Assembly: GCA_021801565.1 (NCBI GenBank) | Contig: JAJYXV010000015.1 | Coordinates: forward strand, 91,168 to 155,167 | Direction: 5' to 3' | Origin: a bacterium | GTDB lineage: Bacteria > Patescibacteriota > Minisyncoccia > UBA6257 > GWB1-50-10 | DNA length: 64,000 nucleotides | Shown: in pieces, positions 29,007 through 61,906 of the stretch | Layout of the letters: each line of letters starts with the position of its first letter | Numbering within the stretch: the first letter of the stretch is position 1 | Notes under the pieces: generated by a model | Told to the model about the DNA's origin: nothing | Seen by the model: the letters and a program-made list of their open reading frames with translations, nothing else | Database searches by the model: none | Position numbers and translations under genes: made by a program

Positions 29007-29094
29007 TGTAAGCCCTATTAGAAATTAGTCAAAACTAACCACGGCTCGTATAAGCAGAGACAACTCTAGGTTACAAGAAAAAACTTTAATACAG

Positions 29095-29411
29095 TGGAGG
29101 TGGAGAGATTGAACCCTCTTCCAAAAATTTATTCACACATATTCTACAAGCTTAGTTTTGAACGAAAGTTCAGAACAATGATGCCTTGCGTTATTTAACT
29201 CCGAGCGGAGCAAAGCAAATCCGTATTCAGAGCGGTTCTCATAATAACACCGGTGATCCTCTATGAGACATGAAGGGCCGATGCCGCGCTACGCGTAAGC
29301 GAGTGCGGGGACTGCGTTAAAATTGGCAGTTATAATTTGTTGAACAGTTGTCGAGATATTCAGCTCGGCCTGCTATGTATAAATATAATCTCTGTCGATA
29401 CGTGCACCCCC
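29095..29411 (-). ncRNA. ssrA: tmRNA (SsrA), adjacent to smpB. The tag reading frame is read by hand as A-NFNAVPALAYA.
   Basis: Minus strand 5' GGGGGUG..GUAUCGAC (tRNA-like D region). 3' GAGGGUUCAAUCUCUC-CACCUCC-A, a T arm plus an acceptor strand complementary to the 5' GGGGGUG. Internal ORF GCC AAT TTT AAC GCA GTC CCC GCA CTC GCT TAC GCG TAG at 29289-29327. Confidence 0.65.
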
Positions 29412-49718: not shown

Positions 49719-50172
49719 TATTTAAAAGTTTATCGATATTTTCGGTATTTTTATTTTCAATATTTAGATCCTGTGATTCTGATTTGAGTGTATTTGGATT
49801 CAAATGACTTGCCTTTGCGTCTTTTATTTCGGTGATTGCTGCCATAATCATGGAATCGGCATTTTGTTGATAAGACAGTTCTTTTAAGTGAATATTAATT
49901 GAAAGAGCATTTACCTCCTGATTTAATGTTTCGGTGTCTTTTAATGAAGAAACCGTGGGGGTCGGAGAAAGGACTGAAACAAGCACAAAAAGCGCAATGG
50001 CGAATGCAAGAGATCCAATTGCTATAGGCTTTCGTATAAACGAAATAAACGTATCTATATAAGAGATGTGTTGTTTTTGTGACAGAATAGACAAACGAAC
50101 CCTTGCTGCGAAATGCGGGTCTGGCGAGATTTGTCTAAGCCGTTCTAATTGTTTGTGTATTTCGTGATTCAT
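49705..50172 (-). CDS. Single-pass membrane protein, possible anti-sigma factor, coupled to the upstream ECF sigma gene.
   Basis: Overlaps the sigma gene by 38 nt. One central TM helix. Confidence 0.35.
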   Translation of the reverse strand: MNHEIHKQLERLRQISPDPHFAARVRLSILSQKQHISYIDTFISFIRKPIAIGSLAFAIALFVLVSVLSPTPTVSSLKDTETLNQEVNALSINIHLKELSYQQNADSMIMAAITEIKDAKASHLNPNTLKSESQDLNIENKNTENIDKLLNSVIF

Positions 50173-50698
50173 TTATTATTTTTTTTATTTGTTTTAGAGC
50201 CCTATGTTGTATTACACGTATTGCCCCCTCTGTTTTGTGAAGTGTTTCGGCGATTTCTTTGTTTGATAGTTCATCAACAAACTTCATAATAAGTATACTT
50301 TGTTCATCCGGTTTTAATTGAGTGAGTGCGTGCCGTATTTGGATCAACTCCATCCCGCGATCTAATTCATTTTCTAGATCGGGGAGGTGGGCAAATGAAT
50401 CTTCTGAAACGAGTTCAATGTCGATGCTCGGTTTTTGTGTTCGGTAAAAGTCAATAACAGCATTGTGCGCAATTTTATAGAGCCAACTCGAAAAAGGATT
50501 TCCTTGAAAGCGATATGTCCGTATATTTTGCCATGCACTCAAAAATACCTGATGGGTAAGATCTTCGGCGTCTGTCTTTTTTGAAACTTTCAAGAGTATA
50601 AAACGATATATTTTTGGAAGATATGTATCGTAAAGAATTCCAAACGCTTCAGACTCTCCTGATTGTGCTTTTTGAATGAGTGTTATTTCCTCTTTCAT
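50135..50698 (-). CDS. ECF-type RNA polymerase sigma factor.
   Basis: Region 2 LTHQVFLSAWQNIRTYRFQGNPFSSWLYKIAHNAVIDFYR. Region 4 IAETLHKTEGAIRVIQHRALKQI. Confidence 0.8.
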   Translation of the reverse strand: MKEEITLIQKAQSGESEAFGILYDTYLPKIYRFILLKVSKKTDAEDLTHQVFLSAWQNIRTYRFQGNPFSSWLYKIAHNAVIDFYRTQKPSIDIELVSEDSFAHLPDLENELDRGMELIQIRHALTQLKPDEQSILIMKFVDELSNKEIAETLHKTEGAIRVIQHRALKQIKKIINESRNTQTIRTA

Positions 50699-50754
50699 AC
50701 CTATAACGATTTATAGCCCCTTTTGTTTCTGAAACGCTGTAACGTTACAAATTC

Positions 50755-50791
50755 TGGAGCGGAATACGGGAATCGAACCCGTGCCTTCACC
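50755..50791 (-). pseudogene. 3' half of a tRNA-Gly (anticodon-stem 3' strand through CCA), an exact duplicate of positions 39-76 of the adjacent intact tRNA-Gly.
   Basis: TGGAGCGGAATACGGGAATCGAACCCGTGCCTTCACC is identical to 50810-50846. Confidence 0.7.
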
Positions 50792-50809
50792 AAAGTTACA
50801 AAAATCTGA

Positions 50810-50883
50810 TGGAGCGGAATACGGGAATCGAACCCGTGCCTTCACCTTGGAAGGGTGACGTACAACCACTATACGAATCCCGC
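50810..50883 (-). tRNA. tRNA-Gly (anticodon TCC), CCA encoded.
   Basis: Minus strand GCGGGAT-TC-GTA..TAC-G-TCACC-CTTCCAA-GGTGA-AGGC-ACGGG-TTCGATT-CCCGT-ATTCCGC-T-CCA. Flanked by the 12-bp inverted repeats GTTACAAAAATC / GATTTTTGTAAC. Confidence 0.85.
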
Positions 50884-50906
50884 AGGTGAAGATTTTTGTA
50901 ACATTT

Positions 50907-50983
50907 TTGGAAGCCCGCCTGCCGCCTGCCTGTCGGCAGACAGGGCGGGCAGGGGTGACGTACAACCACTATACGAATCCCGC
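50907..50983 (-). pseudogene. 5' part of a second tRNA-Gly copy (positions 1-38) whose anticodon loop is interrupted between positions 32 and 33 by a 40-nt GC-rich hairpin.
   Basis: GCGGGATTCGTATAGTGGTTGTACGTCACC-C-[CTGCCCGCCCTGTCTGCCGACAGGCAGGCGGCAGGCGGGC]-TTCCAA. The first 32 nt are identical to the intact tRNA-Gly. Confidence 0.65.
50913..50952. repeat. GC-rich imperfect hairpin (copy A of the CCCGCCTGCC..CTGCCTG family).
   Basis: About 75 % GC in an AT-rich genome. Apex CCTGTC-GGCA-GACAGG. Outer stem GCCCGCC/GGCGGGC. Confidence 0.6.
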
Positions 50984-51210
50984 CACTCATACAATTTTGC
51001 ACAAAAGGTAAATATTCTGCAAGTATATAAAAGTAGCGCACCCCCAAACCCTATGATATGATGTATTTCACACATATCTCGCAATGGGAGTTCAATCGCT
51101 TGAAATTTGCCAGTAAAATTGAGATGAGGGGATTGCTGATGAAAATTAGTCTGTATAATAAAAAGGTGAGATTGATGTATAAATAGTTATTAAGTTTCTA
51201 CTACTTAAGT

Positions 51211-51819
51211 ATGAGTTTTATTGATCAACAAAAGAAGCTTATTCGACTCACTGGGATTTCCATTGTGGTTATTATCGTTGCATTGGGAATTATCTATATT
51301 ACTTCAATTCGTTCTTCACAAGATATACCGGAGCGTTTTGTTGAGGCAAGAAAAAATGCAGCATCTGTGAGTGAAGATATAGTTCGTCTTACAAGTGATA
51401 CGAATGAAAAAATTGCACAAATTAATGTGCTTGAAATAAAAGGGAAGGCAGAAGAAGCGCTTTTACTTATTCAAAGCGCTCGGGCATCGAATGAGGCAGC
51501 GTATGGAAAAGCATTTGATCTCTCTCAAAATTTAAAAACACTTGCCGAGTCGCTTGCTGATATTCATTCCCCGAGGGAACAACAAATTGCATATGAAGCG
51601 GTCGCGGTAGAACTTTCTTTGGTAAGCGAATTTATCTCTTACACGCAAGCACTGAACACTTTTTTGAGTAATCTTGCTTCACTCATTTCAAACAACACAC
51701 TTCAGAATCAAAATATTGTTCGTTCGAATATAAGCACAGTGAACGAGAAAACTTCGCTTATTAACAATCTTAACACCCAATTCATTGAGAAAATGAAGAC
51801 GTTTGATTCATCATTTTAG
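51211..51819 (+). CDS. Hypothetical membrane-anchored coiled-coil protein.
   Basis: N-terminal TM helix followed by a long helical, Ala/Glu/Leu-rich sequence. Confidence 0.4.
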   Translation: MSFIDQQKKLIRLTGISIVVIIVALGIIYITSIRSSQDIPERFVEARKNAASVSEDIVRLTSDTNEKIAQINVLEIKGKAEEALLLIQSARASNEAAYGKAFDLSQNLKTLAESLADIHSPREQQIAYEAVAVELSLVSEFISYTQALNTFLSNLASLISNNTLQNQNIVRSNISTVNEKTSLINNLNTQFIEKMKTFDSSF

Positions 51820-61563: not shown

Positions 61564-61656
61564 TGTCTCAACGCGGGGTGGAGTCAAAAAGAAAAACATG
61601 TTTTCTATGTGATAAATATGACGGCAGTACACACGTTTTGGGGTTGAATATTTTGT

Positions 61657-61727
61657 CGGGGCGGAGTATGTCGGTAGTACGCACGCTTCGGGTGCGTGTA
61701 GACCGAGTTCAATTCTCGGCGCCCCGA
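61657..61727 (+). tRNA. tRNA-Pro (anticodon CGG). No CCA encoded. Flanked directly by 13-bp inverted repeats.
   Basis: CGGGGCG-GA-GTATGTCGGTAGTAC-G-CACGC-TTCGGGT-GCGTG-TAGA-CCGAG-TTCAATT-CTCGG-CGCCCCG-A. Flanks TTGAATATTTTGT (61644-61656) and ACAAAATATTCAA (61727-61739). Confidence 0.8.
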
Positions 61728-61796
61728 CAAAATATTCAACGGGAATGTTGGGGACATTCCCTGGAAATTTATAAAAAATTTATATAGACAGGGTTC

Positions 61797-61845
61797 CCCG
61801 CCTGCCCTGCCTGCCGTCAGGCGGGCGTCGGGCAGGAATTCCCTG
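61797..61845. repeat. GC-rich imperfect hairpin (copy B of the CCCGCCTGCC..CTGCCTG family), about 65 nt downstream of tRNA-Pro(CGG).
   Basis: CCCCGCCTGCCCTGCCTGCCGTCAGGCGGGCGTCGGGCAGG-AATTC-CCTGC.. shares the 5' arm motif with 50913-50952. Confidence 0.5.
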
Positions 61846-61906
61846 CTTGCCCGTCCGTAGCTTTAGCGAAGGCGGGTAGCCCGATAAAATAACATTACCA
61901 ATAAAC

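Follow-up and report, generated by a model that had tools for sequence, protein, structure and literature searches.

The 64,000-nt stretch analysed here (the window, from contig JAJYXV010000015.1 of assembly GCA_021801565.1) contains, on its minus strand at 50983-50755, a 229-nt locus in which an intact tRNA-Gly(UCC) gene lies between the two halves of a second copy of itself, the outer copy being further interrupted by a GC-rich hairpin. The arrangement is a real, unusual structural variant, and most likely neither a new kind of intron nor a proven jumping element. On balance, it is best read as a nested duplication allele of a single-locus tRNA-Gly(UCC) gene, in which the inner gene would be functional and the outer halves relics. 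The genome is that of a Parcubacteria/Jorgensenbacteria-like bacterium of the candidate phyla radiation (CPR); its relatives are Patescibacteria metagenome-assembled genomes (MAGs) labelled Parcubacteria, Paceibacterota or Jorgensenbacteria. Related loci that were compared carry L-numbers, and sigma-factor homologues carry P-numbers.

The layout matches base for base that described in an earlier note made from the sequence. Read on the minus strand, from upstream to downstream, the elements are:

50994-51022, minus strand: conserved block, cTTGCa ... TTTTgTGCAAAAt, preceding the outer 5′ end and recognized by invariant alignment columns
50953-50983, minus strand: outer 5′ part, GCGGG..CACCC, tRNA positions 1-32; 31 nt, 31/31 identical to the inner gene
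50913-50952, minus strand: GC hairpin CTGCCCGCCCTGTCTGCCGACAGGCAGGCGGCAGGCGGGC, 40 nt, near-palindromic, between positions 32 and 33 of the outer copy; member of a dispersed hairpin family
50907-50912, minus strand: TTCCAA, the remainder of the outer anticodon loop, positions 33-38 including the anticodon TCC (read from the sequence)
50884-50906, minus strand: leader of the inner gene, AAATGTTACAAAAATCTTCACCT, 23 nt, composed of AAAT, GTTACAAAAATC and TTCACCT
50902-50891, minus strand: left arm of the inverted repeat, GTTACAAAAATC (repeat search)
50810-50883, minus strand: inner, intact tRNA-Gly(UCC) with encoded CCA (ARAGORN; Rfam RF00005, 64.3 bits)
50792-50809, minus strand: trailer of the inner gene, TCAGATTTTTGTAACTTT, 18 nt, composed of TCA, GATTTTTGTAAC and TTT
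50806-50795, minus strand: right arm of the inverted repeat, GATTTTTGTAAC (repeat search)
50755-50791, minus strand: outer 3′ part, GGTGAAGG..CTCCA, positions 39-76 with CCA; 37 nt, 37/37 identical to the inner gene

On re-reading, all parts of this anatomy (the split outer copy, the hairpin, the inner tRNA and the exact identities of 31/31 and 37/37) are in place. A repeat search reports both direct repeats at 100% identity, the 31-nt pair with a spacing of 100 and the 37-nt pair with a spacing of 55, and detects the inverted repeat as well. The breakpoints are exactly complementary (..A38 / G39..), with zero bases lost or duplicated, and the unit between positions 38 and 39 is 115 nt long, consisting of the leader, the complete tRNA with CCA, and the trailer. 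Within the leader, CTTCACCT is the reverse complement of tRNA positions 38-45. The arms GTTACAAAAATC and GATTTTTGTAAC pair over 12 bp perfectly, followed by one bulged T and 3 bp more; the “15-16 bp near-perfect” terminal inverted repeats (TIRs) of the earlier note are thus present, at a slightly smaller length than stated.

The inner copy is recognized by ARAGORN as tRNA-Gly(tcc), and its RF00005 score of 64.3 bits compares with a threshold of 29 for a bacterial tRNA. Its sequence features G1-C72, C2-G71, G3-C70, U73, C35 and C36, and it is presumed to be the working tRNA-Gly gene. The outer copy, the loop of which carries 40 and 115 extra nt, is called as a tRNA neither by ARAGORN nor by Rfam. 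In an Rfam search of the whole window and of the locus at E<=10, the sole scoring RNA at the locus is the inner tRNA; weak matches there (SpF41, tmRNA_permuted and others) were traced to the inner tRNA itself and discarded. The predicted fold of the 229 nt is a cloverleaf inside a cloverleaf, with an energy of -96.3 kcal/mol (z = -5.07, 0/200 shuffles as good), and the nested fold is also predicted in a second species (L009/L174, z = -6.4). A consensus scan finds no internal promoter-like site and no terminator within the insert. The conserved block at 50994-51022, which the consensus promoter scan did not call, is presumed from its invariance to be the sole promoter of the whole nested transcript.

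The arrangement is not an assembly error. The downstream sigma-factor protein is found as an exact match on 20 contigs, three of them long, and the whole intergenic region is identical to the window in GCA_027423585.1, GCA_027423605.1 and ENA ERZ27237541, the last of which is an independent MEGAHIT assembly. The sequence of five Logan contigs from other runs opens with the final 30 nt of the 37-nt repeat and a single unique base; a break at exactly this point of the 3′ repeat is expected of a k=31 graph if the repeat is real. It is true that repeats can be mis-joined in short-read metagenome assemblies, and that three of the MAGs share one project. Nevertheless, a mis-joining of two ordinary tandem tRNA-Gly genes, or of strain variants, is barely credible: the same sequence is present in three assemblies, the Logan breaks fall at the predicted repeat ends, the homologous layout recurs with a different hairpin and different flanks in two further MAGs, and collapsed tandem genes cannot yield the unique junctions of hairpin, leader and trailer.

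The comparison with relatives identifies the outer copy as the ancestral one. In L011, L090, L091 and L178, with sigma factors 89% identical to that of the window, the locus holds one intact tRNA-Gly, 74/74 identical to the window's, and the flanks of this single gene are those of the window's outer halves (..TTTTGTGCAAAATTGTAgGAGTG upstream, CCA GATTTGTAACGTTACAG downstream); because these flanks match, the outer copy is taken to be the original gene, and its description as one tRNA-Gly broken at the anticodon loop holds. The outgroups L013 and L012 have single-gene loci as well. The empty site that had been predicted is therefore found in four relatives, and in addition in a strain (L172) conspecific with the second nested species.

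This second species is represented by L009 (the same as L173; L174 is identical). Its sigma factor is 83% identical to that of the window, with 73% DNA identity over the sigma gene and downstream sequence, and its layout is the same: 5′ half, 40-nt hairpin, TTCCAA, leader, intact tRNA with CCA, trailer and 3′ half. Between L009 and the window the leader is identical at 21/23 positions, the trailer at 14/18 and the hairpin at 33/38 plus 4 gaps; the upstream intergenic flank is identical at 61/94. L172 has the same sigma protein as L009, and the aligned flanks are identical at 312/316 positions, with exactly 155 nt absent and the tRNA-Gly intact. Deletion across the 31-nt repeat pair removes 100 nt and across the 37-nt pair 55 nt, which jointly yields the plain allele of L172. 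A presence/absence polymorphism is thus evident within the second species (nested in L009/L174, plain in L172); L172 may be either the product of a loss or the state before insertion.

The inner and outer copies share their substitutions within each genome. The tRNAs of the window and L009 differ by T/A in the D loop and by G/A in the T loop, and within either genome the inner and outer copies agree in the variant that they carry. There are 0 differences between outer and inner copies over 68 nt in the window and 0 over 66 nt in L009; if the outer pieces drifted by 10% per lineage, the chance of zero change in 68 nt would be ~0.9^68, or ~8e-4. Since the shared substitutions are lineage-specific, gene conversion among the repeats is indicated rather than independent selection, and at the level of sequence the copies are shown to evolve in concert.

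The inverted repeats that border the 115-nt unit appear to behave like an RNA leader-trailer (processing) helix. In the tRNA-Gly helix, for which two species only are available, one double change (G-C to A-U) keeps the pairing and another change adds a C-G pair. In L174 the helix of 15 bp is stacked immediately upon the outer anticodon stem, so that pairing is unbroken over ~21 positions along the 3′ strand. Among 48 tRNAs surveyed in the window and all related loci, leader-trailer complementarity of at least 12 nt is seen in two cases only, the inner tRNA-Gly (window and L009) and tRNA-Pro(CGG) (window, L182 and L183); in the others it is <=7 nt. In tRNA-Pro(CGG), the acceptor stem is prolonged to 21 bp by a flanking helix of 14 bp, and across three species four of its pairs show double compensatory changes and none is broken. 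As the pairing is conserved and the sequence is not, and as repeats bound by a transposase would keep their sequence, the “TIRs” are more readily understood as a processing helix. A possible alternative source of the paired changes is palindrome correction at the DNA level.

The tRNA-Pro(CGG) gene (61657-61728, plus strand) is located between the perfect inverted repeats GTTGAATATTTTGT and ACAAAATATTCAAC, the bracketed region extending over 61643-61740; its counterparts are at 1198-1296 in L182 and 1069-1167 in L183. Upstream of it, CGGGGTGGAGTC at 61572-61585 (plus strand) is a duplicated 5′ end of the same tRNA, and in L183 (~960-972) the duplicate includes the leader too (acgatttggggt..ttttgtCGGGGTGGAGTC). 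These duplicates show that the tRNA-Pro(CGG) locus also has partial tRNA copies outside an intact, stem-bracketed gene. An assignment of CGCGGGGTGGAG at 61572 as a fragment of tRNA-fMet was rejected, as L183 reveals the duplicated 5′ end of tRNA-Pro(CGG).

The tRNA-Gly site is occupied differently in further relatives. L089 and L180, the closest by sigma factor (92%), have no tRNA there and carry GC-rich hairpins: in L089 at 1280-1460, and equally in L180, GC-rich inverted repeats gcgggcaaaaatttt../..aaaatttttgcccg and gccccgcccccgcgggggcggggc replace the tRNA-Gly, together with a possible T-loop remnant GGGTTCGAG. L010 (2868-2939) and L169 (1867-1939) have a quite different type of tRNA-Gly(TCC) (GCGAGAGTAGTACAATGG..) at the site upstream of the sigma gene, which shows that lineages have exchanged their tRNA gene here; L009, with its nested allele, has L169 as its nearest relative. 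In L014 (2734-2890; Jorgensenbacteria LCQK01000001, with L094 identical), the tRNA-Gly(TCC) matches the window type in its first 18 nt only and is followed by a displaced 3′ fragment of the window type, GCCGGTTC[39-nt GC hairpin]GATTCCGGTATCCCGCTCA, the T loop holding the hairpin; the arrangement has the look of an old replacement or an integration scar. Downstream, L009 bears two extra tRNA-Gly 3′ fragments, and small hairpins occupy the T loop of the last one. At 2851-2943 of L009 (the same in L172 and L174), a further 3′ half follows the nested unit, in which the 5′ strand of the T arm and the loop are replaced by two small GC hairpins, CCGCCAGAGGCGG and TCAGCCTTGGGCTGA. Both L009 3′ copies are followed by AAAATTTGTAACG, indicating tandem duplication of the 3′ half with its flank. 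The tRNA-Gly locus is a hot spot for rearrangement and allele exchange. Several candidates for further nested alleles were rejected: P0004/L169 has the different tRNA-Gly type, P0123/L180 lacks the tRNA, and the contigs of P0124/L181 and P0126/L177 break inside the tRNA for other reasons.

In the favoured reading, the nested duplication allele, an ancestral gene would have been interrupted at two points of its anticodon loop, at 32/33 by the 40-nt palindromic repeat and at 38/39 by the 115-nt unit. The trailer resembles the native 3′ flank GA(A)TTTGTAAC (in the W clade, CCA-GATTT(T)GTAAC), and the leader corresponds, in reverse complement, to ATTTTTGTAAC plus AGGTGAAG, where AGGTGAAG is tRNA positions 38-45. 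A trailer close to a copy of the gene's own 3′ flank, and a leader close to an inverted copy of the flank and positions 38-45, point to a local origin rather than a foreign element; the unit would most likely have arisen by a one-off local duplication or templated repair. The exact breakpoint at 38/39 favours a nested insertion over the decay of a tandem triplication. A stepwise derivation of the leader by template switching was tried and is unconvincing. As neither an internal promoter nor a terminator was found, a single transcript would be expected, driven by the old promoter upstream of the outer 5′ half and folding into one cloverleaf enclosed by another. The inner tRNA would be set free as functional tRNA-Gly by RNase P and 3′ processing; a stem of ~20 bp, formed by the leader-trailer helix on the outer anticodon stem, may aid the release, possibly via stem cleavage. 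The outer halves and the hairpin would be by-products unable to decode. The direct repeats of 31 and 37 nt would recombine with the inner gene, homogenising the copies, and may delete the insert and restore the plain gene, which would explain the presence/absence polymorphism.

Several points weigh against this reading. The inverted-copy leader depends on matches of 11 and 8 nt that were noticed post hoc. The nested allele is present in two lineages with plain-gene lineages between them, so that vertical descent needs several precise losses, together with long persistence despite deletion-prone repeats; such persistence hints at selection or horizontal spread. The non-tRNA part of the insert is ~82% identical between the species, against 65% for the flank, which either constraint on the helix or a later transfer would explain. 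CCA is encoded by the inner gene of L009 but is missing from its outer 3′ ends, implying that the inner unit is no simple copy of its own genome's gene.

Some of these points would be accounted for by mobility. It is rather unlikely that the 115-nt unit is a small non-autonomous element bounded by inverted repeats and carrying its own tRNA-Gly, which would target the host gene at its anticodon loop, by insertion or homing, and be tolerated as a replacement; a passive variant, included in the same assessment, has the outer halves serve as homology arms, the allele spreading by recombination between related genomes. The empty sites (L011, L090, L091, L178 and the conspecific L172) are precise, as in a miniature inverted-repeat transposable element (MITE) or other TIR transposon, although a deletion by recombination between the repeats would look identical. 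The inverted repeats extend to the insertion junctions, and two species with 73% DNA identity have the unit in an identical position, their closer relatives being without it. The better conservation of the insert than of the flanks, the CCA of the L009 inner gene, unlike the host copy, and the exchange of alleles at the locus seen in L010 and L169 fit as well. Against mobility, the junctions (TTCCAA/AAAT.. and ..CTTT/GGTG) show no direct repeat and hence no target-site duplication, and no transposase or integrase is associated. Neither end has a second copy in the 64-kb window at <=3 mismatches. No other such unit occurs in ~0.77 Mb of related loci or in viral contigs: the sole other copy, in a search covering the window, viral contigs and related loci (with whole genomes outside it), is the orthologous one in L009/L174; the 46 tRNAs in the ~0.77 Mb include no other nested or fragment-flanked case, and a phage collection gives generic tRNA-Gly matches only. 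Between species the differences in the arms are compensatory, in the manner of RNA helices, and the inner tRNA has the variants of its host lineage, so that gene conversion must be invoked anyway. Of the mini-element with TIRs inserted into its own tRNA that was originally proposed, the empty sites are real; the mobility is unproven, there being no target-site duplication and ends that look like an RNA stem. A bolder proposal, which we regard as quite doubtful, is a self-propagating “tRNA-in-tRNA” cassette that would move among Patescibacteria with the halves as homology arms and provide its host with a substitute gene, or else a selected precursor in which excision of the inner tRNA from the long co-varying stem leaves a stable two-piece, hairpin-tagged tRNA-like RNA with a role of its own; if either were true, this would be the first bacterial counterpart of the archaeal split tRNAs.

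An intact tRNA followed by a direct repeat of its own 3′ part is the classical attL/attR signature, and the locus could accordingly be the scar of site-specific integration, where one or more tRNA-targeting elements left attachment (att) repeats and were later deleted. The exact 3′ repeat, the two further 3′ fragments downstream in L009, and the hybrid tRNA-Gly of L014, behind which a 3′ fragment of the other tRNA-Gly type lies displaced, are in line with this. We consider it improbable, given that only 18 nt, resembling the native flank, separate the intact gene from the 3′ repeat, that no integrase gene is nearby (the neighbours are the ECF sigma factor and hypothetical proteins), and that the duplicated 5′ part, the exact 38/39 complementarity and the inverted leader are left unexplained. 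More improbable still is a functional intron-like or split tRNA, in which the outer halves would be spliced to a second tRNA-Gly or would form a non-covalent, two-piece tRNA-like RNA. The outer halves are perfectly kept in two species though free to decay, the predicted fold includes all four of their stems (acceptor, D, anticodon and T), and Patescibacteria are rich in tRNA introns (PMC13011429). However, there is no group I signal at E<=10 in 50500-51300, the inserts being just 40 and 115 nt where group I introns typically exceed 200 nt, and no bulge-helix-bulge geometry, for which two 3-nt bulges with a 4-bp helix between them would be required at the exon-insert boundaries, is common to both species: the window fold has one 3-nt bulge (UUU) on the 3′ side only, that of L174 has none, and the 5′ side is a large multi-element loop. 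The intron-like precursor suggested as an alternative in the earlier note fails on both counts. Moreover, strains with the plain gene manage without the arrangement, the outermost 3′ copy in L009 has a disrupted T arm, and the shared lineage-specific substitutions indicate gene conversion, not independent selection. We also know of no bacterial enzyme for the precise removal of such inserts.

The 40-nt hairpin in the outer anticodon loop, which folds at -31.4 kcal/mol, is unique in the window at <=3 mismatches; a more divergent relative is found near tRNA-Pro(CGG):

61797-61836, plus strand: the window's other GC-rich hairpin of this family, carried in its loop by the T-arm-like stem CAGGG TTC[..]AATT CCCTG

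This copy matches the reverse complement of the L009 anticodon-loop hairpin at 37/40 positions. Further copies are located at L009 2655-2694, L014 2830-2868 and L014 4923-4972, with a shorter copy upstream in L178. Members have 31-37 of ~40 positions in common, in either orientation, as expected of a dispersed family; they are built from GCC(T/C)GCC units, with a copy number of 2 in 64 kb. The hairpin is therefore, as had been supposed, a separate insertion on top of the nested unit. Four of ~6 copies are in loops of tRNA-derived stems, either the anticodon loop at 32/33 or the T loop after C56: two in the anticodon loops of the outer tRNA-Gly copies of the window and L009, one in the T loop (after TTC) of the L014 tRNA-Gly 3′ fragment, and one in the T-arm-like stem loop at window 61790-61847. 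The two others, L014 4923-4972 and that upstream in L178, occupy ordinary intergenic sites. The anticodon-loop hairpins of the window and L009 have 33 matches and are no closer to each other than to other members (35 and 37), so that they need not be orthologous. The hairpin has no match in Rfam. A role as terminator was rejected, because no T-run follows the hairpin and the terminator scan was empty; a search for the hairpin core in viral contigs gave one match (L171), beside a T-arm-like fragment, and was judged uninformative.

The T-arm-like element of the window (61790-61880, plus strand) is almost identical to one in L182 (~1343-1412), both having the stem CAGGG TTC[..]AATT CCCTG followed by CTTGCCCGTCCGTAGCTTTAGCGAAGGCGGGTAGCCCG. 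The loop insert differs, being the 40-nt GC hairpin in the window and the 19-nt TCTGCCTACAGCAGACAGG in L182. Lying downstream of tRNA-Pro(CGG), the element may represent either the 3′ remains of a tRNA or a small RNA that has been conserved.

Beyond the outer 3′ end, a third motif, GAATTTGTAAC/GTTACAGC, is present at 50754-50736, and two features precede the gene for the extracytoplasmic function (ECF) sigma factor:

50738-50749, no strand assigned: palindrome TGTAACGTTACA upstream of the ECF sigma gene, outside the insert and kept in all relatives
50704-50729, minus strand: GAAAC-N16-CGTTA, ECF-type promoter-like motif of the sigma gene (50135-50698), conserved in the alignment

The palindrome is conserved also in relatives without a tRNA at this place (L092, L096 and L089). 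As it is kept in every relative, it is a regulatory site of the sigma gene and older than the insert; what had been counted as a third occurrence of the TTTGTAAC motif is this conserved palindrome. The motif GAAAC-N16-CGTTA we take to be an ECF promoter from the known pattern GAAC-N16-CGT. The palindrome and the motif (50704-50749, minus strand) are conserved across relatives with sigma proteins 50-92% identical, and probably constitute an autoregulated ECF promoter with an operator-like palindrome. Other genes neighbouring the locus in the window encode RecG, a putative anti-sigma factor accompanying the ECF sigma factor, HU, RNase Y and phosphoglycerate mutase. The window also has a transfer-messenger RNA (tmRNA) and a GC content of ~37%. 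The tmRNA (29092-29411, minus strand) is of the ordinary one-piece type with the tag ANFNAVPALAYA. Seven further tRNA genes are scattered in the window, without nearby partial copies apart from the duplicate at 61572-61585.

To our knowledge, disrupted tRNA genes (split, permuted or multi-intron) are regarded as archaeal or eukaryotic, and the only interruptions attributed to bacterial tRNA genes are self-splicing introns. In the locus described here, a bacterial tRNA gene is cleanly broken up by a hairpin repeat and by an entire copy of its own sequence, in two species and with plain alleles alongside. Literature searches returned no report of a bacterial tRNA gene lying inside its own divided copy, and nothing comparable on split bacterial tRNAs, on MITEs in anticodon loops or on tRNAs flanked by inverted repeats. 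Even if neutral, the locus is a natural case of concerted evolution and of reversible gene disruption over repeats of 30-40 nt in a minimal genome. Such loci are liable to be mishandled by tRNA finders and assemblers, as the five Logan contigs that break here illustrate. Two leads, the co-varying leader-trailer stems and the GC-hairpin family, bear on the processing and rearrangement of tRNA genes in the CPR.

Among known systems, the attL/attR repeats left by integrases in tRNA 3′ ends share with the locus the exact 3′ repeat after an intact tRNA and the decayed 3′ fragments (L009 and L014). They differ in that here there is an 18-nt spacer, with no integrase and no element body, that a 5′ fragment is duplicated too, and that the two fragments are exact halves of one gene. 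The GC hairpins recall the repetitive extragenic palindromic (REP) and bacterial interspersed mosaic element (BIME) type of repeat, being short, GC-rich, imperfect palindromes dispersed intergenically in several related genomes; in contrast to these, their copy number is very low, they are built from GCC(T/C)GCC units and they occupy the loops of tRNA-derived stems. The leader-trailer helix is reminiscent of the RNase III stems around bacterial 16S and 23S rRNA (PMC6582327), where a long helix likewise surrounds a stable RNA and shows compensatory substitutions, whereas here single tRNAs (the inner tRNA-Gly and tRNA-Pro(CGG)) are bracketed and cleavage by RNase III is our inference; the window contains no RNase III gene, which is uninformative for a 64-kb sample.

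Patescibacteria and cyanobacteria have group I introns in the anticodon loops of tRNA genes (PMC13011429), which agree with the present case in the phylum, in the tRNA loop that is interrupted and in escaping standard tRNA finders. Those published for Patescibacteria belong to group I and occupy different tRNAs and different positions, tRNA-Gly not being among the reported cases (PMC13011429); here there is no Rfam match at E<=10, the inserts are of 40 and 115 nt and not hundreds, and they are at 32/33 and 38/39. A resemblance in form is also seen with the disrupted tRNAs of archaea, which are split in Nanoarchaeum equitans and multi-intron or tri-split in Thermoproteales (PMC4033280, PMC4390854). 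Unlike these, the present locus belongs to a bacterium (with tmRNA, sigma-70/ECF sigma factor, RNase Y and HU), has no bulge-helix-bulge, contains as its insert a full copy of its own tRNA and coexists with a plain allele, and no splicing is inferred. Like them, it is broken at the anticodon loop, has complementary sequences beside the break that unite the halves, and can still form the cloverleaf around its insert.

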